A stretch of DNA of 48,796 nucleotides from Thermoproteota archaeon (lineage in GTDB: Archaea; Thermoproteota; Thermoprotei; Gearchaeales; Gearchaeaceae). A program made the position numbers and the translations under genes. This document shows, one piece after another, positions 15,723 through 42,866 of this stretch (position 1 is its first letter; each line of letters begins with the position of its first letter). The stretch is taken from NCBI GenBank assembly GCA_032249055.1, contig JAVVGP010000002.1:1-48796 (forward strand), read 5' to 3'. The notes under the pieces were generated by a model. That model was given only the letters and a program-made list of their open reading frames with translations, was not told where the DNA came from and searched no databases.

Positions 15723-15736
15723 CTACTATTTTAGAG
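15723..15736 (-). promoter_or_regulatory. candidate TATA box for the high-GC ATPase gene
   Basis: The minus strand reads CTCTAAAATAGTAG, centred about 29 nt upstream of the ATG at 15701. This spacing fits a leaderless or short-leader archaeal promoter. Confidence 0.3.
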
Positions 15737-15773
15737 GTATCATGAATATAATTATGAATGGTATTTCTATTTT

Positions 15774-16597: not shown

Positions 16598-16678
16598 TTT
16601 CTATTATAAATAATGACATCATAACTATATCTTTGTCCATGAAATTCATTTGATTTCTGTGAATAAGAATTAATTCTA

Positions 16679-17710: not shown

Positions 17711-17759
17711 GAAGTTAATTATTACAAAAAGAAAGCATCTATCTTGCTGTAACCTTTAA

Positions 17760-18119: not shown

Positions 18120-18133
18120 TATTTTGTCATTAC

Positions 18134-22415: not shown

Positions 22416-22479
22416 TTAAAATGACAAAATCTTATAATTTTGATAATTTTTAATTTTTAAATTATAGATATTTTTAAAC

Positions 22480-27511: not shown

Positions 27512-27753
27512 ACTAAAAACAATGCTTTAATTATGTAAATAACTACTATATAAACAAAAATGATAAATAGCGATAAGCCCAAATAATCAAAATACTTTCT
27601 TCTAGGAGAATAAATTTCAGAAACTAAAAAATACACAATAATATAAGCAAGTAAATATACTTCAATCAAGTTTACATTATAGGATATAAATAATATATCT
27701 AGAAATACAATGATTAATACTAATGTAAGTAAGTATTTTGTATGTTTATTCAA
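27508..27753 (-). CDS. small integral membrane protein (81 aa, about 3 TM)
   Basis: Hydrophobic throughout. TTG start in a TTGA overlap with the upstream gene and a 4-nt overlap downstream. Confidence 0.5.
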   Translation of the reverse strand: MNKHTKYLLTLVLIIVFLDILFISYNVNLIEVYLLAYIIVYFLVSEIYSPRRKYFDYLGLSLFIIFVYIVVIYIIKALFLV

Positions 27754-28448
27754 TATAAAAGTCTTAAATGTATATAAATCTTATCTTTTTGAACTTCTTC
27801 TTTAACTATTCTTACAGGAGTTTTTTTCATTGTTACTACTGTTAAAGCAGCTAAGCTAGCAGGTAAAGAACCTAAACATTTTGAAAATTGAGGTAGCTTT
27901 TCCTTCGTATTTGGTTTGGTTATTTCTATAATTATATTTTCAGCAGTTTCAACAGCTATAACTTTGGAACAAAATTCAGTCATATCGACAAGGACTTTTT
28001 CCAAAGCTTCACTCAAAGAGAAATCATAATTTAAAATATTCTTAACTATTGTACATCCTGGAGGATAAAATTTTATAACAGGTATATTCCTAACAAGCAA
28101 GAAAACATTTCTTTTATCGATTTCTTCAATAGGCAAACTCTCAATCGTTTTAATGGGTAAAATAACTGAAGCATAACCTTCATTTGGAGGGAGGTAAATA
28201 GCCTTAGATTCAATTTTAAGTTCTTCAAGAATAGCCTCTATAGTTAAAGCTGAACTTTCAATCAAAGATCTTATCGTTGCTGGCGGAGTCGGTTCTTCGG
28301 GAAGCATTATTGCTGCAATTCCTATAATTATTGCTCCTATTCCTATTGCTGTTAAAGGTATGTTTCCATAAAAAACATAAAAGAAAAATGAAACTATAAT
28401 ACCGAATATTATTAAGACCTTTCCAAATAACGAATAACTTTCTCTCAT
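27750..28448 (-). CDS. membrane-anchored hypothetical protein (232 aa)
   Basis: Two N-terminal TM helices, then a soluble domain with no motif I recognise. Translationally coupled on both sides. Confidence 0.5.
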   Translation of the reverse strand: MRESYSLFGKVLIIFGIIVSFFFYVFYGNIPLTAIGIGAIIIGIAAIMLPEEPTPPATIRSLIESSALTIEAILEELKIESKAIYLPPNEGYASVILPIKTIESLPIEEIDKRNVFLLVRNIPVIKFYPPGCTIVKNILNYDFSLSEALEKVLVDMTEFCSKVIAVETAENIIIEITKPNTKEKLPQFSKCLGSLPASLAALTVVTMKKTPVRIVKEEVQKDKIYIHLRLLY

Positions 28449-29047
28449 ATTTTTTCAGCTTGATTTAATAACTTTAAGTAAGGTAATTTTCTGAAAATTG
28501 ATATGATTGAAAAAATTAAAGTTGTAGAGATCAAAGCTACCAAAACTGGCTCAAGTCGAATGCCCCATGGTGTATAATTAAGAATAAAACCTTCTAAAGC
28601 TACAATTCCAATACTTAAAGCGATTGAAAGACTTAATCTTTCAATACCGTTTAATTCATCAGGTTTAGGAAAAATGCTCTCAATTAATACGTAACCTGGC
28701 AAAAATAGAATAAAAATTGAACCTAGAATATATCTGAAGTATAAAATAGGATATATCTGGGGCATTAAATATATAGTGTACAAAGTTATTAGACTAATTA
28801 CTAGAACACTCCAAAACCAAGAAGAATATCCTGATTTTAAATAACTAAAAAAATTTGTTGGAGGATTATAGTCAATTTTAGCTAACAGACCTTCATCTAT
28901 TAAATCATTTATTATTTTCAATACTTTACTCCTTTTTAAACCTGTTTTAATTCTAATTTGTTTAACAATTTCATTAACTGTCAACGTTTCTTTTTCCAAC
29001 AGTTCTAAAATCATTGATCTAACTTGTTTATCTGATACTTTTTGCAT
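28445..29047 (-). CDS. winged-helix DNA-binding-like domain fused to a DUF1616-type multi-TM module
   Basis: The N-terminal 60 aa, LELLEKETLTVNEIVKQIRIKTGLKRSKVLKIINDLIDEGLL, is wHTH-like. It is followed by 4-5 TM helices with FLPGYVLIESIFP...IERLSLSIALSIG, reminiscent of the membrane part of archaeal DUF1616 proteins. Confidence 0.45.
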   Translation of the reverse strand: MQKVSDKQVRSMILELLEKETLTVNEIVKQIRIKTGLKRSKVLKIINDLIDEGLLAKIDYNPPTNFFSYLKSGYSSWFWSVLVISLITLYTIYLMPQIYPILYFRYILGSIFILFLPGYVLIESIFPKPDELNGIERLSLSIALSIGIVALEGFILNYTPWGIRLEPVLVALISTTLIFSIISIFRKLPYLKLLNQAEKI

Positions 29048-29048
29048 C

Positions 29049-30062
29049 TTATTTAGTCACGTTTAAGTATAGTTGATTCCAAATTCCCATGTATTTAAAA
29101 TTATTTTGTGTAACCGAATAAGCCCAAAGCTCGAAGATTAGCTTAATATTTTCCCCTGTCATGTTTAATGCTAAGGTAATTTTCCTTATCTCAATTTGAT
29201 GATTAAAAAGAATGAAGCTATATACAGCTATTGGAGGAACATCTAAATAATTAGTTTGATTTACTATACTTGTAGCGTTACCAACTTTTATCAAGACTTG
29301 GTAATACATTATATGTCCTTCTTTATTTTCGACATAAAGATACAAAGTAAAGTTTTGTCCTAAGGTTACATTTTTAGGATAATCGCCAATTTTTCCATCA
29401 GGTCCAAGTATACCGAGTGATGAGAATGGATTTTTGTTTAGATCTGCTAAAAAATAATTCGAAACAAGAAATGCTCCTATTATTATTATTACTGTTAATG
29501 TAACAATCGTAATTTGCTCATCAATCTTATATGAACCTTCTTTATTCTCATTTCTTCTTTTATTAGATTTCAATTTAATTATTCTCCAATCTTTATGTGC
29601 TCTATACCAAAGCTCCCAATACAAGGATGGTAAGTATTTGTAAAGCATAAAGCCTATAATTACTAACATAACTATTTGAAATATGAAAAGAATCATGGAA
29701 TTCCTTTGGTTTATCATGGCTTCTTGTGCAATGCTAGGAACTTGATTCAAAACGTTTTCTGCAATTAAAAAAGCTTCATTATAATATTTTGATGCTAAAG
29801 TTGAGTTTATTTTTGAATAATAATTACCTAAATCTACTAGCTTAACTGCTTCATTAAGCTTGTTTGACAAATTTGTTATATTACCACCATTTTGTTCGGC
29901 ATGTAATAAAGCTTTATAAGCTTCTATAATTTTATTTTGGACCTCATCATAAGTAATTTGAGCATTTAAATACACAGAGTTATTTGATATAATAAGAATA
30001 GAAATAATTAAAGTAATTAGTAAATTTAATAATTTCTTTTTAAGATTATTTGGATAAATCAT
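29049..30062 (-). CDS. secreted/membrane protein with DUF1616-like C-terminal beta domain
   Basis: Signal/TM segment, helical region, two TM helices, then LGILGPDGKIGDYPKNVTLGQNFTLYLYVENKEGHIMYYQVLIKVGN, reminiscent of the extracellular part of DUF1616. First gene of the MoxR operon. Confidence 0.4.
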   Translation of the reverse strand: MIYPNNLKKKLLNLLITLIISILIISNNSVYLNAQITYDEVQNKIIEAYKALLHAEQNGGNITNLSNKLNEAVKLVDLGNYYSKINSTLASKYYNEAFLIAENVLNQVPSIAQEAMINQRNSMILFIFQIVMLVIIGFMLYKYLPSLYWELWYRAHKDWRIIKLKSNKRRNENKEGSYKIDEQITIVTLTVIIIIGAFLVSNYFLADLNKNPFSSLGILGPDGKIGDYPKNVTLGQNFTLYLYVENKEGHIMYYQVLIKVGNATSIVNQTNYLDVPPIAVYSFILFNHQIEIRKITLALNMTGENIKLIFELWAYSVTQNNFKYMGIWNQLYLNVTK

Positions 30063-30188
30063 TTGAATAACTTAATTTTTTTAAGAATGAGATAATGTGT
30101 CTATTTATTTAAAGTTGGAATATTTAATTCTAACCATAAGATTAATTAGCATCTTTCTTTGCTTTTGCCAGTCTTTGTGGATATTCAC

Positions 30189-30419
30189 CTATCTTTCAAC
30201 GAATCCAAGCGAATATGCTGCGACTAGATGCCTGTGTATATCGAGCATTGCTTCTATAATTCTATGCATTGCCTTTTCTAAAGCTAACATATCTTTGTAG
30301 TCTAGGTCTTCAATTTTCTTCGATAGTATTTCGTTTCTGATAAACTGCGTATTTCTTCTGCTTTCTTCGATTCTTGATGAAATAACCGTTTTATTTAATT
30401 TTGGATCAAAAGTTATCAA
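30189..30419 (-). pseudogene. HepT/DUF86-like HEPN toxin remnant (C-terminally truncated)
   Basis: EKAMHRIIEAMLDIHRHLVAAYSLG resembles the central helices of DUF86 proteins. The ORF has only 76 codons, starts at TTG and stops before any Rx4HxY motif. Confidence 0.4.
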
Positions 30420-30461
30420 AAGTTTAATTTCTATTAAAGCATCTGGTTTTCGTTCTGCTTT

Positions 30462-30794
30462 TTATGAGAGATGTTCAGTAATTTTAGGCTGTGCTTTGAT
30501 TATGATACCTTCTTTGAGTATTTTTGAGAGAATTATTGGATTTGTTTGGTTTAAGAGCACAATATCTATATGATCTTCGTTGATCTGTAGAGTTTTTGCT
30601 ATCTGGGTTACAATATATCCAATTTCTAGCAAATCTTCTTTTTTTAATTTTAGGGCTATATCTATGTCATGGACGCTGAACTTATTTTTTGCTATGGAAC
30701 CAAATAATATTGCTGTTTCAACACTTTCAAATCTTTCAAATAACCTTTTTAATTTAGGTAATACGTAATCCAGTATAAGCTTGTTCTTAATCAT
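30462..30794 (-). CDS. MntA-type minimal nucleotidyltransferase (antitoxin-like)
   Basis: ILFGSIAKNKFSVHDIDIAL fits the GSxxxGx(5-7)SDxD-type pol-beta NT motif. 110 aa, directly upstream of the DUF86-like remnant. Confidence 0.7.
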   Translation of the reverse strand: MIKNKLILDYVLPKLKRLFERFESVETAILFGSIAKNKFSVHDIDIALKLKKEDLLEIGYIVTQIAKTLQINEDHIDIVLLNQTNPIILSKILKEGIIIKAQPKITEHLS

Positions 30795-30832: not shown

Positions 30833-31174
30833 TTATCTTTTTATATTCGAATATGTTAATCCTAACCAAAAGATATAATTAGTATCTTTTAACCAATCTT
30901 TTATTTTTGGTATCATTATTACTGTTTTGATTTTTAATAACGCTTCTGCAACTTCTTTTCCTTTCTTCATTATTTTTTCTTTAAAAGAATTTAATTTCTT
31001 CATTATTGATATTACTGTTTCGATGATCTCTTTGTTTATTATCTTTTTAATTTTTGATAATTTCATGCAAGCAATGTAAAATGCTTTATCAATTGCTGAA
31101 AGATTATTCCATAATCCTTTTCTTAAGCATGATCTATAAAATCTTGATAGATCTGAAAATGATAAACTATGCAT
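30833..31174 (-). CDS. conserved hypothetical 113-aa protein, copy A
   Basis: MHSLSFSDLSRFYRSCLRKGLWNNLSAIDKAFYIACMKL... By my manual alignment it shows 15 mismatches in 342 nt against ORF 40744..41085, with both reading frames intact. Confidence 0.6.
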   Translation of the reverse strand: MHSLSFSDLSRFYRSCLRKGLWNNLSAIDKAFYIACMKLSKIKKIINKEIIETVISIMKKLNSFKEKIMKKGKEVAEALLKIKTVIMIPKIKDWLKDTNYIFWLGLTYSNIKR

Positions 31175-31197
31175 TTAATTAATTAATCACCTTATTG

Positions 31198-31205
31198 TTT
31201 AAAAA
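31198..31205 (-). promoter_or_regulatory. candidate TATA box of 113-aa gene copy A
   Basis: The minus strand reads TTTTTAAA, 24-31 nt upstream of the ATG at 31174. The same element sits at the same distance in copy B. Confidence 0.35.
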
Positions 31206-31250
31206 CTTTAAAATAAGACTATTCTTATTAAAGAGAATCTAGCGCCATAC

Positions 31251-31448
31251 TCAATTTTTTAATTAAATAATTACTTGAGGCTAAATTTTTAGCCTAAATT
31301 TTAAAAGTCAATGCAAGGAGCCATGTTTTCTTACAAAGGGGAATCATACAAATAAAACTCATATAAAATGGCTCTTACGTCTCTAAATTAAAAACACTTT
31401 TCCAAAAGCTAAAATTCTTCTACAAATAAGTAACCATTTAAAGTTTGA
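31251..31448 (-). pseudogene. remnant of the 3' end of a carbamoyltransferase gene
   Basis: The nucleotide sequence aligns collinearly with 41161..41355, the C-terminal coding end of ORF 41160..42866. The corresponding frame here carries multiple stops and indels. Confidence 0.5.
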
Positions 31449-31582
31449 TGTTATTGGTATAAAAATTATAACTAGCTTTGTGTTTTTCATTAAGACCATT
31501 TAAGGAGTCCTTAAATATTAAATATTTAGTTTTGGTTTAATGTTTGTTTTTCTTTTTATATATAATAATATTATATAATCCG

Positions 31583-31602
31583 GATTGAAGTATACTTCAA
31601 TC
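31583..31602. repeat. perfect 20-bp palindrome GATTGAAGTATACTTCAATC within an AT-rich imperfect dyad
   Basis: Read directly from the sequence. It is flanked by tatatataataatattatataat on the left and atatatataatatattact on the right. Confidence 0.9.
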
Positions 31603-31744
31603 TCAATTTCATATATATAATATATTACTATTTTATATGAGTATTCTGTTTCTTAGCGAGAATGCATTAATGCTATTATTGTATCATGAATACAATTATA
31701 AATGGCGCTCCTCAGAATTTTTGAAGTAAACAAGTCTTTCTTTT

Positions 31745-33154
31745 TTATGCTGCGCTACTATATTTATATAAGGCTAGATTGCCTCGTTGTGATATTTTTT
31801 TAAATCCGAGTGAGTAAGCTTCATAATCATTCCAATATAATAAATATAGGTTATGTTTTGGTACATTTTCAAATGCTTGTTGTAGACTAGGAAACATGTT
31901 ATATGTTCCGCCTCCACCAAATCCTATGATTTGTGCGTTTGTGTAATATAATGCCCATCCTGCGAAGTCTCCATATACTAATAGTATTATGTCTTTTTCG
32001 TTTTTTATTTGGTTTAGTAATGTTATTGTTGGTTCAATATCGTATAATGGTATTGATGTTTGGACCATACTAGTTGGCATCTTGCCTGGCATTTCATAAT
32101 ATGGGGGGATTATTTTTAGTCCTATGAATGTGAATGTTGATAAATTCATCAAAAGTATTATTGCTATCGTTATTGTTTGATTTTTACTAATTTTCATTTT
32201 TATTTTCCATACTGTATTTGTTGCGTATATTGCTAACGGTATTGCTAGTAATAGTATAATTCTCCATGGCTCTACCATTCCAAGTAGAAATGATGGTGAA
32301 ATTATTGTTGATAATGAGCCTAACAGTATTAATATTAACCAAGTAGTCATTACTTTATCTTTGAAGTAACCTATTATAGAAAGCGGGATAATAGGTAAGT
32401 AAAGTTTCATGATCATTATGATGTTTTGTGATTCATACATTATTGATTGAAATGTTGGGTATGTAAATATTGGGATCTGGTATAATTTGAGTAAGTTATC
32501 TATGTTTAAGTATTTGTATATGAAAAGTGTGAATGCTATAAATAGGATTGCTAGGAAGATTAGACCATGTTTGTTTTTAATATTAGTTAATGCTAGGATT
32601 AGTAATAATGATATTAGTATTACGCCTGTTAATTGGTGTGCTAAAATTGTTAGCGTTGTTAATATTATGAATGTTATTGTAATATGGGGTTTTTTTGTTA
32701 TTGATTTTATTATTGATACTGTCAATGTTAGAAAAACTAATCCGAGCATCTGGTCATGCAAATCCCAAGATATGCGTAGGTTAGCTATTGAAAGAGTCGT
32801 TATTATGGATGCGAGTAATGATTTTGTATTGTTCCATTGTAAGTAGTTTTTTGTTAATAGATATATTGATAATCCGAAGAATCCGTAAATAATTATTGGT
32901 AAAATTTTCATTGCTATTACTACATCGATTCCTATTGCGTATAATCCTCCTAATATAACAGTTTGGAACAATCTGTATGGCGGCCATAAACCTTCTTGTG
33001 CATGATATTTTGCATATGCAAAATATAATGGCGTATCGTATCCTATTGGATATGGGAATTGTATTTCTGGTATTGCTCTTATTGTTGCAGGAATTATAAA
33101 TGATAATATTATTGCGTGTTTTTTTAGATTTATTGTAACTTTTAGAGATTTCAT
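31745..33154 (-). CDS. GT-C-like polytopic membrane protein, short paralogue (469 aa)
   Basis: Hydrophobic throughout. It has an early loop PYPIGYDTPLYFAYAKYH. After the last TM comes DIILLVYGDFAGWALYY, which parallels the post-TM motif of the three longer paralogues upstream. 4-nt overlap with the upstream gene. Confidence 0.45.
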   Translation of the reverse strand: MKSLKVTINLKKHAIILSFIIPATIRAIPEIQFPYPIGYDTPLYFAYAKYHAQEGLWPPYRLFQTVILGGLYAIGIDVVIAMKILPIIIYGFFGLSIYLLTKNYLQWNNTKSLLASIITTLSIANLRISWDLHDQMLGLVFLTLTVSIIKSITKKPHITITFIILTTLTILAHQLTGVILISLLLILALTNIKNKHGLIFLAILFIAFTLFIYKYLNIDNLLKLYQIPIFTYPTFQSIMYESQNIIMIMKLYLPIIPLSIIGYFKDKVMTTWLILILLGSLSTIISPSFLLGMVEPWRIILLLAIPLAIYATNTVWKIKMKISKNQTITIAIILLMNLSTFTFIGLKIIPPYYEMPGKMPTSMVQTSIPLYDIEPTITLLNQIKNEKDIILLVYGDFAGWALYYTNAQIIGFGGGGTYNMFPSLQQAFENVPKHNLYLLYWNDYEAYSLGFKKISQRGNLALYKYSSAA

Positions 33155-35394
33155 GTTCTAGTATCTAATATTATTACTTTATTGTTCATGTATGCTATTT
33201 TGAATTGTTTGATCAAATGTTGATATTCTGGCCATGTTTGTATAGTTGCCGTTGGTATTCTTGGTATTACTATATAAGTTATATTGTTTTGTTTTATAAT
33301 TTGCCTTGTGTCTAATATTGACAATTCATTTTGAGTTGCGTCTTTTTGTGGATTTTGTCTTTTAATGTTTATTATTATGTTATTTTGTGTGCATGTTAGT
33401 CTAATTTGTCGATTATCTGGCGTATTTGTTACTGTTTCTGCATTTGTTGTAATAATTATTGTATCTATATCTGTATAAATTTTGGTATCTTGTGCTATTT
33501 CTATTAAGTTTACTTGTCTTTGTGGCGATATTTCTATTATGAGTGTTGTATTTTTGATTTGAAGATTTGTTTTTATTATGTAGTTTATAGTTAATGTAGG
33601 CATTGTACTTATTGTTATCGTTTTATTTATCATGACATCTTGGTTATTATATATTGTTTGAATTACTGCTATGCTTTTTTGCGCTTTTAATGTTGAGGTT
33701 GCTGTGAAGTTCTTCGTCATTAATATAGCAGTTGTAAAATCTTTTGTTGATGTTTTGTTCGTTGCAATGATTAGTTTTTGGTCATTTACGATTAATGTTT
33801 CATGATATTTCCCTTGTTTCCAGATACTTATTATTGGTGTAAAGGACTGGTTATAAGGGTTTTGATCTTGTATTCTAAAATATCCGTTTCTAATGTCATA
33901 TGTTGACTTTAATATTGCTGATGCTATATAATATCTTTCTAATTGTCCTTCTAGGAAAAAGAATCGGGGGTCAGCGTACCTATATACCCTCCTTTGCGAA
34001 TATCCTTCTATCCATTTCCCTATCATCTCATCTGCTATGAAAGTTTCGTTTGGTAATGTGTTTGTTTTTATCCAGTTTAGTGCCGCAAGCTTTTCATGAT
34101 CTCCATATGGATCATGTATTGGTACCCATGAGTTTACATTATTTATTGTTTGCAATCCTAGCGTAAATGTGTTTATTGATGCAGTTAGTGTGAGTATTAT
34201 AATTACTATTCCCTCTATTGTTTTATATTTCATTATTTTCTTTATAGCTTTGGATGGATGGATTGGTATATCTAGCATTGTAAGAGCTGTTGCTAGTAGA
34301 AGCGGGATTGGTTGTATTGAAAAGAAGAATATTCTGTTGTAATCGATTGCTATGCCTAACAAATATCCTTGTGTAGCTATTATTGGAAATAGGGACCAAC
34401 TAATTATTAGTGTTAAGTGTTGCGGTTTTATTAATTTATACGTTCCTAGCGATAGTAAGATTATTAATATGATCATAATTATTAGTATAATTAGGGAGAT
34501 AAACGGTAATGGGGATTTAAATACCCATGGTATTGTAACTATTGGATTAAATCTTAATTCATAGTATGCTGCTTCATTATATGTTAAGAATTGTGAAGGA
34601 TATGCGAGTGTGTATCTATATATTATGAATATGGTTAATGATATTATCAGCGAAGTAAGTATTGGTTTTGTTATTTCTTTTAGTGCGATTTTGTTTTTGT
34701 AAAGTATTAGCAAGAGTAACCATAGTAATGTTACTCCTAAATATATGGTGTAGGTTAAGTGGTGCGTTAATGGTAATAATATGCTTAATATTACTAGGAT
34801 AATTTTGTCTTTGGTTATTGGATTTTCTATTATTTTTATTATCATATAAAATGTAAATCCTAACAATATTAACCCTAATAAATTGGGATATCCTCCCCAT
34901 CCTAACATTTCTGAATATATTGGCATTACTGATGCATAAGCTGTTATTAATGCTGGTATCGGTTTTTTAGTTATTTTCTTTGCTATTAAAAATATAGGTA
35001 ATGGCTGTAATGAAAAAAATACTATTCCAAGTATTTTTAGTGTTGTTATTGGATCTAGAAAAATTTCTAGTAGCAATATTATAAAGAATGGTAATGGTGG
35101 GTACTGCCACGCTCCTATATTCCACATTGGATAAAGTCCTTGTTCTACTGTTGGATTGTTTACACCAAATGCTTTTTCTATTGTTGATTTGATTGCGTTT
35201 GCATACATTAACCATTCTCCTGGATCACTCCACCATGGCAAACTTCGTTGTGAAAATATTATTGTTACATAAGCCATAGGTATTAGTATTGATAAGGATA
35301 ATAATACAAGTTCTATTTTTCCTGAAGTCTTCTGATTAATAAAGTTCCATGCTTTTGTTATTTTTTCATCTAAAACGTTTATTTTACTGTTCAT
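33151..35394 (-). CDS. AglB/STT3-like-architecture GT-C membrane protein (747 aa), no WWDYG motif
   Basis: More than 10 TM helices, then a ~330-aa Thr/Asn/Ile/Gln-rich soluble domain. Motifs are SLPWWSDPGEW (first loop), SEMLGWGGYPNLLG and ALNWIKTNTLPNETFIADEMIGKWIEGY just after the last TM. Confidence 0.5.
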   Translation of the reverse strand: MNSKINVLDEKITKAWNFINQKTSGKIELVLLSLSILIPMAYVTIIFSQRSLPWWSDPGEWLMYANAIKSTIEKAFGVNNPTVEQGLYPMWNIGAWQYPPLPFFIILLLEIFLDPITTLKILGIVFFSLQPLPIFLIAKKITKKPIPALITAYASVMPIYSEMLGWGGYPNLLGLILLGFTFYMIIKIIENPITKDKIILVILSILLPLTHHLTYTIYLGVTLLWLLLLILYKNKIALKEITKPILTSLIISLTIFIIYRYTLAYPSQFLTYNEAAYYELRFNPIVTIPWVFKSPLPFISLIILIIMIILIILLSLGTYKLIKPQHLTLIISWSLFPIIATQGYLLGIAIDYNRIFFFSIQPIPLLLATALTMLDIPIHPSKAIKKIMKYKTIEGIVIIILTLTASINTFTLGLQTINNVNSWVPIHDPYGDHEKLAALNWIKTNTLPNETFIADEMIGKWIEGYSQRRVYRYADPRFFFLEGQLERYYIASAILKSTYDIRNGYFRIQDQNPYNQSFTPIISIWKQGKYHETLIVNDQKLIIATNKTSTKDFTTAILMTKNFTATSTLKAQKSIAVIQTIYNNQDVMINKTITISTMPTLTINYIIKTNLQIKNTTLIIEISPQRQVNLIEIAQDTKIYTDIDTIIITTNAETVTNTPDNRQIRLTCTQNNIIINIKRQNPQKDATQNELSILDTRQIIKQNNITYIVIPRIPTATIQTWPEYQHLIKQFKIAYMNNKVIILDTRT

Positions 35395-35399
35395 ATTAA

Positions 35400-37535
35400 T
35401 TATGTTGTTTGCTTCTTTACTTTGAAGATTATTATTAAATTGTTCTCAAATACTGGTATATATTTATCATTTTTTAGGAATTTTACATAATCTTGTACTG
35501 ACTTTGATAATGCTATGTAATCAATATTATATTTTTTGATTATTTCATCTACTGTATAAGCCCATAGGTGATCATTCCACCAACTTTTTTTTGCGGTTAT
35601 GAACGTCATACTGAGCTCTGCTTTAACTGTATTATTTGTTGGCGTGAATGTGTATAATACTCGAAGTTGCCCCCATTTTGGATCTGATCCTACCGTATAG
35701 TTCTTAGCGTTTGTTTCAATTTCAATTATTTTTTCATCTATGATTAGTCTAAGTTTATTTGAATAATACGTGTAATCTTTCAATTTTGATTCAAAGGGTA
35801 TCCATATTGGTATTTTTGTTTCTTGTAGTGTTGCATTTATCGTTGGTATTATTATGTAATTTATATTTACTGTTTTAGAATCTTTTGCGAGCCCTATTGT
35901 TTTTATTATTTTGAGAGATTTTGAATTATATGTTATTGATATTGATGCAGACGTTGGTGTTTTATTTATCCATGTTATGTTTGATATCGTTGCTTTATAT
36001 GGTGATTCAATCCATGTATTGTTAGCATATATAAATGATGTTTCTACTGTGCCATCTACTAGATATATGGCTTTTGTGTAGTCTGGTCCTGTTGATTGTT
36101 CTATCCATGGTGTTTTGTCTGTTTCATATGGTATTCCGTCTAATATTCTTAGATATTCATTTCTCATTTCTATGTTATATCCGCTAAGAATTAAGCTTGC
36201 TGCTTCATACCTTTCTAATTCTCCTATCATGAATATTTGAAATGGAGGTAATTGTAATAATGTTCTTCTTTCCGCATATCCTTCTATCCATCTTCCTAAA
36301 GTTTCATCTGCTACAAATATTGCGTTTGGCGAAGTATTTGTTTTTATCCAGTTTAGTGCTTCTAATCTTTGGTCTGAAGCATATGTATAATCTGTAATGT
36401 AATGATAATATTCATTTACTTTATATACTGTTATTACTCCAGTTAAAATGTTAATCATAACTGTAAGTAGCAAGAGTGATGCGACTATTATTTGGGGATT
36501 CAGGTTTTGTGTAAGTGTTTTGGAGTCATTCTTTTCTTTTAATATCGCTATGGTTATTGAGCTTAGTATTATTATCGCTGGTATTGAAAAAATAGGGAAT
36601 CTTCTCGGGTCTAATGCTATTCCTAATATGTATGACTGTGTGAAAAGAAATGGAAAAAATATCCAAACTAGTAATATTATTAATTCTTCTTTTTTGTTAA
36701 GGTAGTATAGTCCTAGTGAACCTATTGTTGCTGTTAGAAAAAGAAGCGATGCTGCTAATGGATCTTTAAATATCCACCAAAAAGCATCCATATCAAATGG
36801 TCTGTTTAATTGAGATGCATAATTAAATATTATATATTGAAATGGTCCTGCCAAGATTCTCCAAATTATGAAGGTAATTACAGATATTGTAATTGGAATT
36901 AATATTTTAAGTTGTGATAATTGAGCGCGTTTTCTGATGATACTTAAAAATGTTAATAATATAATTATTGAACCTATTACTGCGTAGACTATTAATGTTA
37001 AATGATGTGTTATTGAGAGTAGTGATGTAAAGATTGATGCCATTAATATGTTTTTGTTATTCTTTTCTCCTTTCATTATTTTATAAAGGTAGTATAATGA
37101 TAAGTTAAGAAACATTATTCCTAATAAATTCGGGTATCCTCCCCATCCGTACATTTCTGAAAAAGCTGGATGGAATGCTGTTAGCCATACTGCTATTATT
37201 CCTGCTTTGTAACTATTTGTTATTTCTTTTGCCAGTGGATATACTGTGAGGGGTAATAATGATATTAAAGTTATGCCTAGCATTTTTAATGATAACAATG
37301 CATTATGTGTTAGAATGATAAATATAGCCAATATTATATTAAAAAATGGAGGATATTGAAGTACTGTTTGATCCCAAAGTGGATATGTATTACCTAGTAA
37401 TGCGTTAGCATTTTTTAGCCATATTGCAGGATCATTAATTGGAGGAAAAGGATCTGGTCCAAATATTAATAGATATACAACGAAGTTTATAAACGAGGGA
37501 AGTATTAATAAAATGATTTGATTTTTTCTTTTCAC
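35400..37535 (-). CDS. AglB/STT3-like-architecture GT-C membrane protein (711 aa), paralogue
   Basis: PPINDPAIWLKNAN, SEMYGWGGYPNLLG and ALNWIKTNTSPNAIFVADETLGRWIEGY are clearly paralogous to ORF 33151..35394. GTG start in a GTGA overlap. Confidence 0.5.
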   Translation of the reverse strand: MKRKNQIILLILPSFINFVVYLLIFGPDPFPPINDPAIWLKNANALLGNTYPLWDQTVLQYPPFFNIILAIFIILTHNALLSLKMLGITLISLLPLTVYPLAKEITNSYKAGIIAVWLTAFHPAFSEMYGWGGYPNLLGIMFLNLSLYYLYKIMKGEKNNKNILMASIFTSLLSITHHLTLIVYAVIGSIIILLTFLSIIRKRAQLSQLKILIPITISVITFIIWRILAGPFQYIIFNYASQLNRPFDMDAFWWIFKDPLAASLLFLTATIGSLGLYYLNKKEELIILLVWIFFPFLFTQSYILGIALDPRRFPIFSIPAIIILSSITIAILKEKNDSKTLTQNLNPQIIVASLLLLTVMINILTGVITVYKVNEYYHYITDYTYASDQRLEALNWIKTNTSPNAIFVADETLGRWIEGYAERRTLLQLPPFQIFMIGELERYEAASLILSGYNIEMRNEYLRILDGIPYETDKTPWIEQSTGPDYTKAIYLVDGTVETSFIYANNTWIESPYKATISNITWINKTPTSASISITYNSKSLKIIKTIGLAKDSKTVNINYIIIPTINATLQETKIPIWIPFESKLKDYTYYSNKLRLIIDEKIIEIETNAKNYTVGSDPKWGQLRVLYTFTPTNNTVKAELSMTFITAKKSWWNDHLWAYTVDEIIKKYNIDYIALSKSVQDYVKFLKNDKYIPVFENNLIIIFKVKKQTT

Positions 37536-39559
37536 TGTATTATTACTTTATAGATCGTTAGATAATCGTTTTGGTACAGCGATTTAAATATTTCATAATA
37601 GAGACCGAATTTATCCATGTTTTCTTTTTTAACTACTGTTGGTATTATAGCATAGCTTATTTTATATTTAGCTAATAATTCTTTTATGTCTGCTGCTATA
37701 ACTTTGCTATTCATCCAATTGATTGGTTTGGGATTCAGTATTTCTACCGTTACTTTAACTCTTATACTGTTTTGTATTGGCACGAATGTTGCTAATACTC
37801 TTGGCTGCGTCCATGTTTCATCTGGACCAAATGTTAATCTCACTAGAGTACCATTAAAAGTTATTTTATATTCGCCTATATCTGTTGAGAAATGAAATGT
37901 ATTTCCTATTACCTGTGTGAATCCAAGTTTTCTTTCCCATGGTACCCACATTTTTAGTGTAAATGAGTTTATTATTGAAGTTGTTGAAGATATGTAATAT
38001 TCTATTGTAGCTTTAGGGTCTGTTGTAAGTGTTAATTGTTTAATTATTGTCACCCCTCCTTCAAGCGAAAATATGTGTTGAATTGTTGCTATATTCTCTG
38101 TACGTATAATCCATGTTGTATTAGTACCCTTGTACTGGTAAAAGTCTGGACTTAATAGTTTGTTATTATATGTATATGATACACGTGCGTGATTTTCATC
38201 AATATATATGAATTCGGAATAATTATTTCCGTCTGATGATGCTATTGTTGGCAATCTTTGTGGCGCTTTACTTCCCCAATCTCTTAGTCTTATGAATTGA
38301 TTTCTAAGTTCATAGTTAGCATTGAGTATCGTATCTGCATCATAACTTTTGATAAAATTGTTTATGTCGTTTGGATTCGTAGGTAAATTTGTTATTACTG
38401 TTCTTTTAGTATATGATTGTATCCAACTACTTAAAGGATATTCTGCAAGGATTACAGCATCTTTTGGTGTATTTTCATTTATCCATGCTAATGCGTTAAG
38501 TAAGTCAATATCACCGTATCTATCAATATATATTGAATAGTTCTGGATCGTTTTATTCACTACATTATAGGTTATAAACGTGTTTGAGATTATAAGGAAT
38601 GCTATAAGTATGAGCGCAAAGAGTTTTGCTAAGTCTATTTCTACTACTTCCTCATTTTCAACCCGTTTGCTTAATGCTAAACCTTTTATTATTTCAGGAA
38701 GCAATACTGATGTTGATATCGCTAACGGATAGAAAAGGTAAATTATAGCCAGTTGCGGACTTATTATAACTATAGAAATTATTGATGCTAGTAACCATGA
38801 TGCAATTACAAGAAAATCTTCTTTTGAGCGTTTTAATATGAGATAGAGTCCAAAAATTCCGCTTATAAAACCTATTATAATTGTTTGGTAGATATCTGTT
38901 GGAATGTTAATAGTTTGCTGTTTATATAATAAAGTGATTGGTAGTGAAATATATGATGCTAATGGATACATAAAATTAAGTTTGATCTTTTTATTCATTA
39001 TAATGTTTATTATTACAATCAACGAAGATGCGATAACTAAAATAGACATTGCGTTTGAATCAGCTAAGGCAGTTAAAAGTGAAAATATTGCTATAATTAT
39101 TGATTTTTTTGCTACATTAAGTTTAGTAAATCTTGTAATGAATATGATTGAAACTGAAAGGAATAATAATCCTTGTAGTTGTGCATAATTAGAAGACATT
39201 ATTAACCATGAATGTAATGGATAAATTATAACTAATATGCCTGCAATAAATGATGCAATTTTATTATTTGTTATTTTATATGTTATGTAAAAAGCAGGAA
39301 GAGGTAGCAAGATAAAAGTAAGAAGTGCAGAGCTCATTATAGCATAAGATAAGTTTGCGAAAAATGGAGAAAATATCCATGCAATATATGGGAAAAGTAT
39401 TATTGTATTTGGTTTCCCTTTAATAATTTCATTTAGAAGTGTAAGCCATTTTATATCATCAGGTCTTGTCGCTATTATTAGTCCTAATGTTGATACATAA
39501 AATACCAATATAGCTAGGGGTATAAGTAAAAATATTAGAATTATGTTACTAGTTTTCAA
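37532..39559 (-). CDS. AglB/STT3-like-architecture GT-C membrane protein (675 aa), divergent paralogue
   Basis: Same layout as the two paralogues. ALAWINENTPKDAVILAEYPLSSWIQSY follows the last TM, and RPDDIKWL sits in the first loop. TTG start. Confidence 0.45.
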   Translation of the reverse strand: MKTSNIILIFLLIPLAILVFYVSTLGLIIATRPDDIKWLTLLNEIIKGKPNTIILFPYIAWIFSPFFANLSYAIMSSALLTFILLPLPAFYITYKITNNKIASFIAGILVIIYPLHSWLIMSSNYAQLQGLLFLSVSIIFITRFTKLNVAKKSIIIAIFSLLTALADSNAMSILVIASSLIVIINIIMNKKIKLNFMYPLASYISLPITLLYKQQTINIPTDIYQTIIIGFISGIFGLYLILKRSKEDFLVIASWLLASIISIVIISPQLAIIYLFYPLAISTSVLLPEIIKGLALSKRVENEEVVEIDLAKLFALILIAFLIISNTFITYNVVNKTIQNYSIYIDRYGDIDLLNALAWINENTPKDAVILAEYPLSSWIQSYTKRTVITNLPTNPNDINNFIKSYDADTILNANYELRNQFIRLRDWGSKAPQRLPTIASSDGNNYSEFIYIDENHARVSYTYNNKLLSPDFYQYKGTNTTWIIRTENIATIQHIFSLEGGVTIIKQLTLTTDPKATIEYYISSTTSIINSFTLKMWVPWERKLGFTQVIGNTFHFSTDIGEYKITFNGTLVRLTFGPDETWTQPRVLATFVPIQNSIRVKVTVEILNPKPINWMNSKVIAADIKELLAKYKISYAIIPTVVKKENMDKFGLYYEIFKSLYQNDYLTIYKVIIQ

Positions 39560-39584
39560 ATTCCTTATTCTTAGAATGTATTTT

Positions 39585-40733
39585 TTAAATTAAATTTCTA
39601 TAAACCCTATCATACTCTTCCGCAATATTATTCCAATCATATCTTTTTATAAATTCATAACCATTTTGTTGCAATTTTAACCATAAATTTCTATCATTCA
39701 TTATCTGTAATATTGCTTCTGCAAGATGATAAGGTGAAAGTTTTGCTACTAAACCGCTTTTACTTTCTTTTATCAAATCTGATGCTCCATTTCCTTCAAC
39801 AGAGACAACTACTTGAGGTGTTCCTGCAGCCATTGCTTCAAGTGTTGTAATGCTTTGCCCCTCCCTTATTGATGGAAGAACATATACATATGCACTTTTT
39901 AGCCTTTTAACTAATTCCTCATCACTCACATCGCCAAGTATAGTAATACAATTTTGAAGCCCCTTCTTTTTAATGTATTCCTCATATTTAGCTTTCATAG
40001 GACCATCTCCAATGATTTCTAAATGAACATCATTAATGTGCTTTTTTACTATAGGTATTGCATCTATTAATAGCTCAATCTTTTTATGCCAATTTAATCT
40101 GCCTATGTATACTATTTTATTATGCTTTCTTTCTGATTTAATTCTATTAAAAAGCTCCAAATCAACGCCATTGGGTATTACGACAACTTTGCTTTTATCC
40201 ATCTTTAATAAAGATATTAAACGTAATGCCGTTGTATTGCTTACCGCTATACCAATATTTGGCATCTTTACATAGATTTTTTCCAAAATGATTCCTAATG
40301 GAACATGAAAGATTGTCGGAGAATACCAATACCAATGAGAATACCAAACTTCATGAAATGTAACGCTTAACGGAATTTTGTTCATTCTGGTATGTATCCA
40401 CGAACTTATAACAGGAAATATTGGACAATGATTTGCCTCTATGATTTGATAATCCTTATTAGAAGTCTTTTTAATAGCCCATGCTGCATAGAGTAGAACT
40501 TGTGATATAGAACGAAATCCATCTTTAGTTATGTAATTTGTTAAAGGAATTTCAGTTCTATATACATTAATGCCATGAATATTCTCATATGTTGGCCATT
40601 CTTTATTTAATCTAACTGTGTATAAGTCAATCTCATAATTTCTCTTTACTAACCTTCTCAATACTTCATAATATCTTTTTGCCGATCCTCCTTTAAATGG
40701 ATAAAACGTTTCAGTTATAACTGCAATCTTCAT
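39585..40733 (-). CDS. GT4-family glycosyltransferase
   Basis: FYPFKGGSAKRYYEVLRRLVKRNYEIDLYT; IPNGVDLELFN; EGQSITTLEAMAAGTPQVV (EX7E). Confidence 0.85.
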   Translation of the reverse strand: MKIAVITETFYPFKGGSAKRYYEVLRRLVKRNYEIDLYTVRLNKEWPTYENIHGINVYRTEIPLTNYITKDGFRSISQVLLYAAWAIKKTSNKDYQIIEANHCPIFPVISSWIHTRMNKIPLSVTFHEVWYSHWYWYSPTIFHVPLGIILEKIYVKMPNIGIAVSNTTALRLISLLKMDKSKVVVIPNGVDLELFNRIKSERKHNKIVYIGRLNWHKKIELLIDAIPIVKKHINDVHLEIIGDGPMKAKYEEYIKKKGLQNCITILGDVSDEELVKRLKSAYVYVLPSIREGQSITTLEAMAAGTPQVVVSVEGNGASDLIKESKSGLVAKLSPYHLAEAILQIMNDRNLWLKLQQNGYEFIKRYDWNNIAEEYDRVYRNLI

Positions 40734-40743
40734 CTCATGCTTG

Positions 40744-41085
40744 CTATCTTTTTAAATTCGAATATGTTAATCCTAACCAAAAGATATAATTAGGATCTTT
40801 TAACCAATCTTTTATTTTTGGTATCATTATTGCTGTTTTGCTTTTCAATAACACTTCTGAAACTTCTTTTCCTTTCTTCATTATTTTTTCTTTAAAGGAA
40901 TTTAATTTCTTCATTATTGATATTACTGTTTCGATGATCTCTTTGTTTATTATCTTTTTAATTTTTGATAATTTCATGCAAGCAATGTAAAATGCTTTAT
41001 CAATTGCTGAAAGATTATTCCATGATCCTTTTCTTAAGCATAATCTATAAAATCTTGATAAATCTGAAAATGATAAAGCAAGCAT
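40744..41085 (-). CDS. conserved hypothetical 113-aa protein, copy B
   Basis: MLALSFSDLSRFYRLCLRKGSWNNLSAIDKAFYIACMKL... 10 of 113 residues differ from copy A. Only 10 nt upstream of the GT4 gene. Confidence 0.6.
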   Translation of the reverse strand: MLALSFSDLSRFYRLCLRKGSWNNLSAIDKAFYIACMKLSKIKKIINKEIIETVISIMKKLNSFKEKIMKKGKEVSEVLLKSKTAIMIPKIKDWLKDPNYIFWLGLTYSNLKR

Positions 41086-41108
41086 TTTATAATATAATTA
41101 CTTCATTC

Positions 41109-41116
41109 TTTAAAAA
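41109..41116 (-). promoter_or_regulatory. candidate TATA box of 113-aa gene copy B
   Basis: The minus strand reads TTTTTAAA, 24-31 nt upstream of the ATG at 41085. Spacing is identical to copy A. Confidence 0.35.
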
Positions 41117-41159
41117 CTTTTAAACGGGGATTTTTGCAATTTTGAAACTCCATACCGAG

Positions 41160-42866
41160 TTATTTTTTGATCAAATAATTACCAATAGCTAAATATTTTA
41201 AGCCTGAATTTTTGAAAGTCCATATAGCAAGCTCAGGTGTTCCTACAATTGGATATCCATGCAAATTAAAGCTCGTATTTAAAACAGCTCCAACTCCTGT
41301 AATTTTTTCAAAAGTTTTTAATATTTTTCTATAAGAAGGATTCCATTCATTTAAAGTTTGGGGTCTTGCTGTAAAATCTTGGGGATGAATAGCCGCAATT
41401 ATTTCATCTCTTTTTTCTGTTGTATCAAAGGCAAGTATCATATATCTCGCAGGTCTCGCATTTACTAAATATTCATGCATTCTTTCTTCAAGTATTGTTG
41501 GTGCAAATGGCATCCAAAAATCTCTTTGCTTTATTGCGCTATTTAATTTTCTTACAACTCTAAAATCTCTTGGATCTGCTAAAATACTTCTGTTGCCTAA
41601 CGCTCTTGGTCCCCACTCAACTCTTCCATTAAATCTTGCTACAATTTCTCCTTTAGCTAATAGTTCTCCTACAACTTCTTCTATACCATCATATTTTTCA
41701 GTTTTATTTTCCAATCCTTCTCTCTTTATTACTTCTCTTATATAATCATCATCAAATTCGCATCCGTAATAAAGATCTTCTAAAGGATGAAATTCTGGTT
41801 TTCTTCCATCTCTTTTACAAAGCTCATAGTAAATTTGTAAAGCAGCACCAACAGGAGTTCCGTCATCTCCAGCTGCAGGATAAAAGAAAGCATCATCAAC
41901 TTCTTCCATTTCCAAAACTCTTTTATTTGCTTTAACATTCAATATATTTCCTCCTGCAAATACTACTTTATGAATACCTGTAATATTTATGGCATTTCTT
42001 ACCCATTGTGTAAATAGTTCTTCATAATAAGCTTGACATGCAGCAGCTATATTATCAAATCTTTCTCCTTCAAGTAGCTTTCTTAATTTTTTCTGCATAG
42101 ATTTCAAGTAGCTTCTGAAAGTATTCTGAAATTCCAAAGGATTTTTTGGATTTATTCTTATTATTTTTCTCATCTTATCAATGCAATATTCTGGCTTTCC
42201 ATATGGAGCAAGACCCATTACTTTATATTCATGATCCCAAGGTTTCATTCCCAAATATCTAGTTATTTCGCTATAGAATGCATTGCCTAGAGAATCGTAG
42301 AAAGTTGACCATGCAATTCTTCTAATTTCTCCCTTTTCTCCTATTGAAACTGTTGAAGAAACGCCATCGCCAGCACCATCTGCAGTCATTATTAGAATCT
42401 TTTCATCGTAGCCAAAGGGGGAAGTTCTGTAAGCACATGAAGCATGGGCTAAATGATGTTCTACAAAGAATACTTCTTTGTTTTCAATTCCTAGTTCTTC
42501 AAATATTTTCTTTAATTCCTTTATATTTCTAAATTTACTTAATATTTTTACGTAAAATTTTACAAAAGATTTAAAATGAATATAAGGAGAAATTTTTTCA
42601 AATATCTTTACTTTTAAAGGATATTCTTCCAAAGGTGAATAAACTCGATTTAGACTTACTATAGCTATAGCATCTGTTTCGGAAGGGTCAACTTTTGCTA
42701 TTTTATATACTTCTTTTATAGATAATTTAGGTATTCCGCTGTGATGCTTTATATTTGATAATCTTTCTTCTTGTATTGCTGCTAAAACTTTTCCATCTCT
42801 TATTAAAGCTGCTCCACAATCATGTCCATCGTTTATACCTAGAACTGTTATTGGTCTATGTGGCAT
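41160..42866 (-). CDS. NodU/CmcH-family carbamoyltransferase
   Basis: ITVLGINDGHDCGAALIRDGKVLAAIQEERLSNIKHHSG and HHLAHASCAY in the N-terminal ASKHA-like domain. GPRALGNRSILADPR and VLNTSFNLHGYPIV in the C-terminal domain. Confidence 0.9.
   Translation of the reverse strand: MPHRPITVLGINDGHDCGAALIRDGKVLAAIQEERLSNIKHHSGIPKLSIKEVYKIAKVDPSETDAIAIVSLNRVYSPLEEYPLKVKIFEKISPYIHFKSFVKFYVKILSKFRNIKELKKIFEELGIENKEVFFVEHHLAHASCAYRTSPFGYDEKILIMTADGAGDGVSSTVSIGEKGEIRRIAWSTFYDSLGNAFYSEITRYLGMKPWDHEYKVMGLAPYGKPEYCIDKMRKIIRINPKNPLEFQNTFRSYLKSMQKKLRKLLEGERFDNIAAACQAYYEELFTQWVRNAINITGIHKVVFAGGNILNVKANKRVLEMEEVDDAFFYPAAGDDGTPVGAALQIYYELCKRDGRKPEFHPLEDLYYGCEFDDDYIREVIKREGLENKTEKYDGIEEVVGELLAKGEIVARFNGRVEWGPRALGNRSILADPRDFRVVRKLNSAIKQRDFWMPFAPTILEERMHEYLVNARPARYMILAFDTTEKRDEIIAAIHPQDFTARPQTLNEWNPSYRKILKTFEKITGVGAVLNTSFNLHGYPIVGTPELAIWTFKNSGLKYLAIGNYLIKK

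Follow-up and report, generated by a model that had tools for sequence, protein, structure and literature searches.

Probable recombination-anchored exchange of glycosylation cassettes at repeated copies of a 113-amino-acid gene in a Thermoproteota archaeon

The subject of this study is a small gene, encoding a protein of 113 amino acids (aa), that occurs twice in a 48,796-nucleotide (nt) stretch of DNA from a Thermoproteota archaeon (contig JAVVGP010000002.1, positions 1 to 48,796, assembly GCA_032249055.1; hereafter the window). The two copies bracket a cassette of glycosylation genes, and we consider it likely, with good confidence, that copies of this gene anchor the exchange of such cassettes by recombination. 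The initial annotation of the window had proposed that the cassette enters, leaves or is swapped by homologous recombination. This proposal gained support from a crossover within the 113-aa gene of related strains (loci L001 and L031), from the mosaicism of the gene and from the variety of cassettes found next to it; where it stands less firmly is the direction of the event that separates L001 from its close relative L006.

The window has a GC content of 29%, and the open reading frames (ORFs) of at least 100 aa in the region all lie on the minus strand. Copy A (30833..31174) and copy B (40744..41085) of the 113-aa gene (both on the minus strand, like all genes, gene remnants and intergenic regions of the window located below) are intact and in direct orientation, 9911 nt apart from start to start, as is apparent both from the ORF listing and from the spacing of the repeat. 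Their ORFs differ at 15 of 342 nt (14 mismatches over 341 nt, plus the final base of the stop codon), and self-blastn aligned 30834-31374 with 40745-41290 (85% identity over 552 nt, E 7e-171). A box search located a BRE/TATA-like box, AAAGTTTTTAAA, at 31198-31209 in the intergenic region of copy A (31175..31249) and at 41109-41120 in that of copy B (41086..41159), at the same distance from each ATG. Farther upstream, the homology runs on, more diverged (~69-72% up to about 31451), into the 3' end of the carbamoyltransferase (CT) gene that precedes copy B. On all these points, and on the presence of exactly five genes between the copies, the initial annotation agreed with the alignments and the ORF listing, and the self-alignment that it had proposed as a check confirmed the similarity of the repeats. 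What it had missed is a third, partial copy (30077..30156), seen by self-blastn and alignment, which consists of the last ~57 nt of the 113-aa gene, with a 1-nt deletion, plus ~20 nt (84% identical to copy B over 58 nt by blastn). This fragment is joined to the truncated HepT part of a toxin-antitoxin fusion (MNT/HepT) and stands ahead of a block of DUF1616 and MoxR genes, with an identical junction in the related loci L016/L017.

We fetched about 60 related loci (referred to by L numbers) and mapped the proteins of the window onto them. Metagenomes yielded 70 close homologues of the 113-aa protein, with 69-96% identity, and only 1 of 185,579 GTDB species representatives contained one, namely the metagenome-assembled genome Thermoproteota archaeon PSS.bin.16, which was not mentioned in any paper found by a literature search. 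The flanks of the locus are conserved in the relatives: CT is 97-99.6% identical at the aa level, and a pair of GT4 glycosyltransferases, GT4_400-GT4_379, is 92-96% identical. The space between these flanks contains no cassette, one cassette or two, drawn from at least five different kinds. The basal form, CT-113-MNT/HepT-GT4-GT4, has a single copy of the 113-aa gene and no cassette (L001, L020-22, L024-25, L028, and L031). In L006-L011 and L013, CT and a 112-aa version are followed by DUF1616, two FtsX genes, a gene for a 534-aa protein and an ABC ATPase, and then by the 113-aa gene and MNT/HepT. L004/L005 carry a cassette of ~17 kb (GT2, DUF2079, rhamnose-pathway, methyltransferase, and flippase genes) between a copy next to CT and a second copy that is itself followed by GT2, DUF1616 and other genes. 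In L048/L036, the gene for a 469-aa protein, which ends the cassette of the window, is followed by a 113-aa gene, a cassette of GT4, epimerase, two further GT4, 881-aa PMT, 2-epimerase and flippase genes, a second 113-aa gene, and MNT/HepT. The GT4/GT-C form found in the window was present on single contigs in L049, L059, L060 and L061, and in pieces in L014, L016/17, and L012. An 80-kb contig (L061 plus L002) carries three copies of the gene.

Thus, some relatives lack 31175-40743, and in others the repeats enclose a different set of genes (DUF1616 and an ABC transporter, ~17 kb of rhamnose and GT2 genes, or GT4 and PMT genes). The presence, absence or replacement of the cassette among these loci upholds the idea of a strain-variable surface-glycosylation module. 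When the sequence next to each copy was clustered, 12 distinct downstream and 6 distinct upstream contexts were obtained, the copies being found behind CT, a flippase, an ABC ATPase or the 469-aa gene. The landing pad, which the initial annotation had taken to be the pair of CT and the 113-aa gene, is therefore better described as the 113-aa gene with its promoter, since CT is not the only gene that precedes it.

Further evidence for recombination was obtained by comparing two near-isogenic loci, L001, which has one copy of the gene, and L006, which has two copies and a 7-kb cassette. Their flanks are 99.91-99.93% identical (2 mismatches over 2839 nt upstream, and 9 over 10,000 nt downstream), and the junction was compared over 760 nt centered on the 113-aa gene. 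The single gene of L001 agrees with copy 1 of L006 at 215 of 215 informative sites up to position 10246, and with copy 2 at 91 of 91 informative sites from position 10251 onward, the switch point being a 4-nt identical stretch at about codon 83. Because the switch occurs within only 4 identical nt, where a k-mer assembler could not jump, L001 is a genuine recombinant, and misassembly was ruled out as the cause of its junction. The same junction was observed in L031, an independently listed contig. A recombinant junction, which the initial annotation had suggested looking for in reads as a deletion junction, is thus seen in two contigs.

The contig L044 (OGCE01000858.1) is 9983 nt long and has an exact 77-nt terminal overlap, which corresponds to a cycle of 9906 nt, i.e. 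one repeat period. Its gene order is the 469-aa gene, the CT remnant, the 113-aa gene, GT4, and three GT-C genes. The 113-aa gene that it contains combines an upstream region and 5' end of the copy A type (58 of 58 sites) with a 3' part that is mostly of the copy B type.

Recombination within the gene was also evident from tests performed on 25 unique intact 113-aa genes. Of 2278 pairs of informative sites, 1004 failed the four-gamete test, at least 30 recombination events were needed in 339 nt (Rm, the minimum number of events), and a PHI-like permutation gave p = 0.016. Compared with CT, the gene showed 0.033 versus 0.019 events per nt and a nucleotide diversity of 0.104 versus 0.038 (2.7-fold).

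The initial annotation had contrasted a well-conserved gene part with a decayed adjacent part, which is correct (15 of 342 nt differing in the ORFs, against ~31% divergence in the adjacent noncoding remnant of CT), and had attributed it to selection or gene conversion in both copies. Only the second of these causes held up. Copies A and B show 3 synonymous and 11 nonsynonymous differences, with a synonymous divergence (dS) of 0.049 and a nonsynonymous divergence (dN) of 0.041, to be compared with the divergence of the remnant and with a strain-level dS of 0.15-0.20 for CT. Because purifying selection cannot lower dS, the coding part of the two copies must have been homogenized recently, and such selection was rejected as the cause of their 96% identity, dS being very low and most of the differences being nonsynonymous (11 of 14 codon differences). 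Among 30 unique sequences, the nearest relative of copy B was copy A (96.1%), while its identity with its positional orthologues, in L014 and in copy 1 of L049, was 90.9%, though their flanks are 95-97% identical to those of copy B. The nearest relative of copy A was its positional orthologue in L016/17 (96.7%). At 7 of 8 diagnostic sites, copy B is of the A type, which, together with its proximity to copy A and its distance from its own orthologues, indicates that the conversion went from A to B. As far as the sequences tell, the 96% identity of the copies is the result of a recent gene conversion in this direction.

The bracket itself appears to be older. The left part of the duplicated segment next to copy A (31250..31451) is a decayed remnant of the last ~200 nt of CT (69-72% identical to CT 3' ends; nhmmer E 2e-22), with stops and frameshifts throughout, and it is separated from the cassette by a spacer (31452..31744) for which no similarity and no Rfam family were found. 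A profile of the CT 3' end and intergenic region matched upstream of every copy standing behind the 469-aa gene, with a constant left boundary ~210-220 nt before the CT stop, even where the 469-aa gene is only 79% identical. This constancy indicates that the bracket of the type found in the window stems from one old event. The CT remnants of other cassettes are shorter (~50 nt in L005, ~20-30 nt in L006 and L011), and the flippase-side copies have none, their upstream region differing from about -20. From these differing left ends we conclude that the segment comprising the CT 3' end (CT'), the intergenic region and the 113-aa gene was duplicated several times, with illegitimate left ends. The right end of the homology between copies, on the other hand, never lies more than a few nt from the stop codon. 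This position fits either a Campbell-type insertion or unequal crossing-over followed by recombination in the gene, or modular operons each starting with a 113-aa gene. No donor of the CT remnant could be named, as its identity with the CT lineages tested was much the same for each of them (69-72%). The 57-nt third fragment indicates that the DUF1616/MoxR block once followed a full copy of the 113-aa gene, and that an illegitimate deletion later fused what was left of this copy to HepT.

Signs of rearrangement were also observed elsewhere in the related loci. In L004 (4120-4390), the stop codon of the 113-aa gene is followed by a second copy of a 54-nt promoter region (89% identical to window 41082-41135) and then by a fragment of GT4_400 (aa 131-204), which is scrambled debris of earlier rearrangements. 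Fragments of an epimerase (aa 260-343 and 1-24) and of CT (aa 1-34), found ~3 kb downstream of a 113 copy in L043 (2962-3451), are further evidence of illegitimate rearrangement in the island. In two basal-type strains, 0.8-1.6 kb of extra DNA (L020, 2928-4545; L021, 12438-13230) parts GT4_400 from GT4_379, which are otherwise adjacent.

The 113-aa ORF is clearly coding as judged from its substitution pattern, with a dN/dS ratio in the family of 0.24 compared with 0.01-0.07 for CT and 0.07-0.15 for GT4, which points to a real gene under weaker constraint than its neighbors; an open frame of 342 nt is also unlikely to arise by chance in DNA of 29% GC. A profile search of 1.8 billion cluster representatives led to 92 clusters of full-length relatives (105-190 aa), which share the motifs RNGxW and YIFWLG and are very basic throughout (isoelectric point (pI) 9.9-11.6). 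No match was found for the 113-aa protein in Pfam or NCBIfam, nor for 52 family members in a Pfam scan. For two AlphaFold models, with predicted local distance difference test scores of 79 and 86, the latter all-helical, Foldseek found nothing better than E 0.5 in the PDB and BFVD. Neither a NusG/KOW domain nor any other recognized domain was detected with Pfam, NCBIfam or the structure search, and a scan of IMG/VR found no relatives on viral contigs. The strongly basic character of the protein raises the possibility, which we put forward tentatively, that it is a nucleic-acid-binding regulator.

Of 32 unique upstream regions from the close lineage, nearly all contain the box AAAAGTTTWTAAA at -39 to -28 from the ATG, an arrangement that would imply a BRE/TATA promoter with a very short leader. 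The first cassette gene starts 10-50 nt past the stop codon of the 113-aa gene (10 nt for the GT4 gene that follows copy B). It is because of the promoter box and of this close spacing that we read the 113-aa gene as a promoter-bearing leader of glycan operons. Four distant members of the family (21-42% identity) each open a glycan cluster whose genes run in the same direction. The member in L045 follows a UDP-glucose dehydrogenase (UDPG-DH) and an Ig-like surface protein, and precedes an AAA_21/DUF4276 pair, an epimerase, GT2, and GT4. That of L051 precedes an NTP-transferase, an epimerase, UDPG-DH, a methyltransferase, two GT2, and a radical-SAM enzyme, and that of L057 precedes GT2, GFO, two GT4, DegT and an epimerase. 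In L054, the gene is found between a block of DUF7982, DUF4350, MoxR, DUF58 and DUF1616 genes and a run of GT2, ATP-grasp, deacetylase, GT4, GT2, and GT4 genes. The homologue in L045, which shows 42% identity, lies at the start of an island of 38-41% GC (6001-20324) on an 843-kb contig from a genome of 47% GC. The pair that directly follows it is of a defense type (OLD/RloB-like), which parallels the presence of MNT/HepT in the lineage of the window.

Taken together, the mechanism that we propose is as follows. The 113-aa gene would be the promoter-bearing leader of glycan-biosynthesis operons in a low-GC lineage of Thermoproteota, present in direct orientation one to three or more times within a single unidirectional supercluster of ~50 kb, each copy heading a different block. 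Each copy, with its promoter region of ~40-100 nt, would offer about 0.4-0.6 kb of portable homology. General homologous recombination, presumably of the RadA type, between a copy and a partner on the same chromosome, on a sister chromosome or on imported DNA could then delete, insert, duplicate or exchange a cassette, possibly through a circular or tandem intermediate, and could also convert one copy into the other. In the window, copy A would still be accompanied by the piece of the CT 3' end left from the original event, a duplication or a Campbell-type insertion, and copy B would lately have been converted by copy A. Selection by viruses on surface glycans may favor such exchanges. A broader generalization is conceivable, though we hold it with clearly less confidence than the exchange itself: the family might be a Thermoproteota-wide "glycan-operon leader," a basic, all-helical, nucleic-acid-binding regulator whose gene doubles as a portable recombination anchor, and the superclusters might be recombination-driven cassette arrays, a homology-based analogue of integrons, from which cassettes leave as looped-out circles, to be reinserted at any other copy in the same or another strain.

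Several observations weigh against exchange of cassettes at the 113-aa gene, or limit its extent. All comparisons were made on metagenome contigs. The event that separates L001 from L006 can be read in both directions, L001 being the product of a deletion in a chromosome with two copies, or else the recipient type before a Campbell-type insertion. The one-period contig L044 may stem from an excised circle, from a tandem duplication or from a cycle in the assembly graph; the circular excision product envisaged in the initial annotation thus has a possible counterpart in this circularly permuted contig. CT also recombines (Rm of 33 in 1704 nt), which indicates that the population recombines heavily everywhere and that the 113-aa gene is only moderately hotter. 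Pairs of copies within other contigs are only 86-93% identical, and gene conversion is therefore sporadic or episodic. The junction between the truncated HepT and the 3' fragment of the 113-aa gene is illegitimate, not homologous. Finally, the CT-side copy is frameshifted into ORFs of 67 and 45 aa in L044 (1988-2326), L059 (10001-10341), L060 (10001-10341), and L061 (7054-7394), owing to the loss of a G that creates an A9 run, and the 67-aa product was found on 17 contigs. The A9 site could be that of a plain pseudogene or a slippage-prone, phase-variable site. Since the CT-side copy has become a pseudogene on many contigs, protein need not be made from every copy, while the promoter and the homologous DNA persist.

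Among the other explanations, the least improbable is the one according to which each glycan operon carries its own 113-family leader, ancient paralogues having been set side by side by the acquisition of operons and homogenized later, so that the repeats would be a consequence and not a vehicle. It accounts for the distant members that open glycan clusters in other Thermoproteota and for the limit of homology at the stop codon, as expected for a gene-by-gene module boundary. We nevertheless regard it as rather unlikely, because the CT 3' remnants upstream of copies that do not follow CT show that a CT-adjacent segment was duplicated, and because the L001/L006 pair shows recombination between copies changing the content of a cassette. 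It overlaps with the recombinational exchange that we favor and may apply to the origin of some copies, for instance the flippase-side copies with their different upstream region. The same near-isogenic pair, with its clean crossover in the gene, makes it highly improbable that the repeat is a static leftover without continuing role, dating from one ancient tandem duplication of CT'-113 that trapped five genes. Such a leftover would fit with the age of the CT remnant (~31% diverged), with the same left boundary in all strains having this cassette, and with the failure to find an empty-site strain near-isogenic to the window among the related loci compared; yet five or more different cassettes are flanked by copies of the gene, which is itself highly mosaic, and copy A has recently converted copy B.

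A site-specific, integron-like system, in which the 113-aa gene or an adjoining site would be the attachment site and the 113-aa protein or an unlinked recombinase would move circles, would explain that the homology ends within a few nt of the stop codon in every context and that a one-period, circularly permuted contig exists; the protein, small and very basic (pI 10), with a predicted fold that has no known relative, could conceivably play this role. We think this very unlikely. Pfam scans of the ORFs of at least 100 aa in the 48.8-kb window disclosed no integrase, transposase or recombinase domain, and the gene tables of L001-L009, L047-L050 and L059-L061 contained no mobility genes. The switch points are spread along the ORF (codon ~83 in L001, near the 5' end in L044, Rm of at least 30), the left boundaries of the duplicated segment differ between cassettes, a repeat search found no inverted repeat at the cassette ends, and there were no relatives on viral contigs. 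As to the possibility that the copies or the cassette are artifacts of repeat-induced misassembly in a mixed population, the DNA evidently comes from a metagenome in which several strains co-occur, and L044 could be a graph cycle. The chance of such an artifact is practically negligible, since the copies differ at 15 positions and have unique flanks, the order CT-113-cassette-113 recurs, each time on one contig, in L049, L059, L060, and L061, which come from other samples and assemblers, and the pieces L014 and L016/L017 match at 95-99%.

The cassette of the window starts with a gene encoding a GT4 glycosyltransferase of 382 aa (39585..40733), with matches above the Pfam cut-offs for Glycos_transf_1 (123.2 bits, 1e-35) and Glyco_transf_4 (68.7 bits, 8e-19). 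It is followed by genes for three paralogous membrane proteins of 675 aa (37532..39559), 711 aa (35400..37535), and 747 aa (33151..35394). According to a crude prediction, each has 10-11 hydrophobic segments in the first ~350-400 residues and then ~300 nonhydrophobic residues, which agrees with the GT-C layout of ~10-13 N-terminal TM helices and a large extracytoplasmic domain behind them; the 675-aa protein has ~11 transmembrane (TM)-like segments and a C-terminal domain. The 711- and 747-aa proteins are 32% identical over their full length, and the 675-aa protein is 25-27% identical to these two (25-33% for the trio overall). Their own Pfam matches are all below threshold (DUF6541, DUF6798, and Dpy19), the 675-aa protein matching Dpy19 and DUF6798 weakly and an orthologue of the 747-aa protein matching DUF6541 weakly. 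Full-length homologues of the 711-aa protein (38-52% identity) carry PF13231 PMT_2 and are named glycosyltransferase family 39 by NCBI, for which reason it is reasonable to classify the three paralogues, by homology, as GT-C. The last gene encodes a polytopic membrane protein of 469 aa (31745..33154), with ~8 TM-like segments, no similarity to the three GT-C paralogues, and no match in NCBIfam or the PDB; a Pfam match to EpsG was below the cut-off (15.7 versus 30.1 bits, E 0.0085). From this match, it may possibly be an EpsG/Wzy-like polymerase. A PDB sequence search with the 711-aa and 469-aa proteins yielded nothing meaningful. The initial description of the cassette as one GT4 and four GT-C-like membrane proteins is thus appropriate for the GT4 and for three PMT_2-like GT-C proteins, and not for the fourth membrane protein, which has only the subthreshold EpsG match.

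The genes for the 747- and 711-aa proteins share patches of 81-86% nt identity (33989-34083 with 36265-36359, and 34865-34915 with 37111-37161), the proteins being only 32% identical overall. These patches represent either very conserved motifs or local gene conversion within the cassette. Between 32001 and 40000, the GC skew ranges from +0.05 to +0.27 over the membrane-protein genes, compared with -0.1 to -0.25 in the flanks on the same strand, with no shift in GC content (~0.29-0.30). The change of sign is probably due to the codon and amino-acid composition of the membrane proteins.

As annotated, the genes of the window, over all its 48.8 kb, make up a single glycosylation supercluster read in one direction. 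In the order of transcription, it starts with GlmS-like, GT2 and GT4 genes, two epimerases, and CT, and continues after the region studied here with the GT4 pair (18134-20472), a retropepsin-like protein, ATPase_2, HEPN and MNT, a second ATPase_2, and AsnB, to end with a run of GT4, methyltransferase, GT2, GFO, and hexapeptide-transferase genes. GT4, GT2, GT-C/PMT, flippase, sugar epimerase, dehydratase, and aminotransferase annotations occur throughout such loci and would be consistent with a role in surface structures. No Rfam match reached the gathering threshold in the whole window. CT (41160..42866) is a 568-aa protein of the NodU/CmcH type (Pfam Carbam_trans_N 1e-41, Carbam_trans_C 1e-57); its gene is the conserved left anchor of the variable region, and its last ~215 nt belong to the duplicated segment. 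The MNT/HepT fusion, which is intact in relatives (273 aa), is disrupted in the window (30150..30794; Pfam Polbeta 4e-15; 77% identity over query residues 1-200 by tblastn). An in-frame stop occurs after 110 aa, HepT is cut off at about aa 214 of 273, and the homology to L002 ends at 30149; as judged from these lesions, it is a pseudogene.

A second extra block relative to the basal strains (20598..30062, ~9.5 kb) encodes, from Pfam matches, two DUF1616 proteins, proteins of 232 and 629 aa, DUF4350, a MoxR AAA+ protein, DUF58, and a 605-aa membrane protein. It is present in L016/L017 and missing between MNT/HepT and GT4_400 in L001 and similar loci. A MoxR-type block of this kind (DUF7982-like, ~630-680-aa CarboxypepD_reg-like, DUF4350, MoxR AAA+, DUF58, DUF1616) adjoins a 113-family gene not only in the window but also in the distant L054 (1-7777). 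The family member of the latter archaeon shows 21% identity, and the shared neighborhood suggests a functional link, conserved between the two lineages, between the MoxR module and glycan clusters. A segment of higher GC (14001-18000, 0.34-0.38 compared with 0.26-0.30 elsewhere) contains ATPase_2 (14670-15701), MNT (15774-16211), HEPN (16181-16597), and ATPase_2 (16679-17710). These ATPase_2 genes, two paralogues repeated in direct orientation ~2.0 kb from each other and 68-71% identical at the nt level, flank the toxin-antitoxin pair and form a second gene-repeat bracket in the glycan cluster.

Surface glycans are the main interface between archaea and their viruses, and their diversification in uncultured thermophilic archaea is poorly documented. 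The locus described here offers a concrete mechanism, at the sequence level, by which glycosylation modules could be stacked, deleted or exchanged one by one, and natural before-and-after strain pairs are already available in public metagenomes. The 113-aa family provides a handle for finding and delimiting glycan operons in Thermoproteota, as well as a candidate regulator.

Classical glycan islands include the O-antigen cluster of E. coli, which lies between galF and gnd, and the cps locus of pneumococci, flanked by dexB and aliA. Flexible genomic islands of the replacement type ("glycotype" islands), which are exchanged through homologous recombination, have been described in bacteria and in one archaeon (Lopez-Perez, Martin-Cuadrado and Rodriguez-Valera 2014, PMC4033161). 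The present locus resembles them by its fixed chromosomal position, differing glycosylation genes, absence of mobility genes, and recombination signatures at the boundaries, and by the presumed gain, a changed cell surface. It differs in that the homology resides in a short gene repeated inside the island and not just in the outer flanks, which allows the serial addition of cassettes (one to three or more copies) as well as the looping out or swapping of single ones. Moreover, the host is a thermophilic archaeon, and the family to which the anchor gene belongs is unannotated. The exchange of glycan islands by homologous recombination is thus already known; what is new is an anchor repeated inside the island to give a serial cassette array, its membership of an unannotated family that leads glycan operons across Thermoproteota, and the natural near-isogenic before-and-after pairs.

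UpxY and UpxZ are the leader genes of Bacteroides capsular polysaccharide operons, UpxY being a paralogue of NusG (PMC11685472). Like them, the 113-aa gene, in this lineage and in the four distant members, is a small paralogous gene that comes first in a polysaccharide operon, directly behind the promoter. Its product lacks a NusG/KOW domain and is unrelated in sequence and predicted fold, and its copies are near-identical, recombining and in tandem, whereas the Bacteroides loci are dispersed, with locus-specific, divergent genes; a regulatory role would here be deduced from the sequence.

Integrons rely on the IntI tyrosine recombinase and on attC sites, imperfect inverted repeats found at the ends of the cassettes. 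The present arrays share with them co-directional cassettes each bounded by a repeated element, a promoter at the boundary and, in principle, the possibility of circles. In contrast to integrons, they have no IntI-type recombinase or attC hairpins, the repeat is a coding gene of 342 nt in which crossovers occur at variable positions, and the cassettes are multigene operons of 7-18 kb. Campbell-type integration and loop-out would also give a direct repeat around an insert, with a truncated CT' at the junction, and as reciprocal product a one-period circle such as L044 might represent. The difference from this last model is that no plasmid or phage backbone is present inside the bracket, which contains the five cassette genes.

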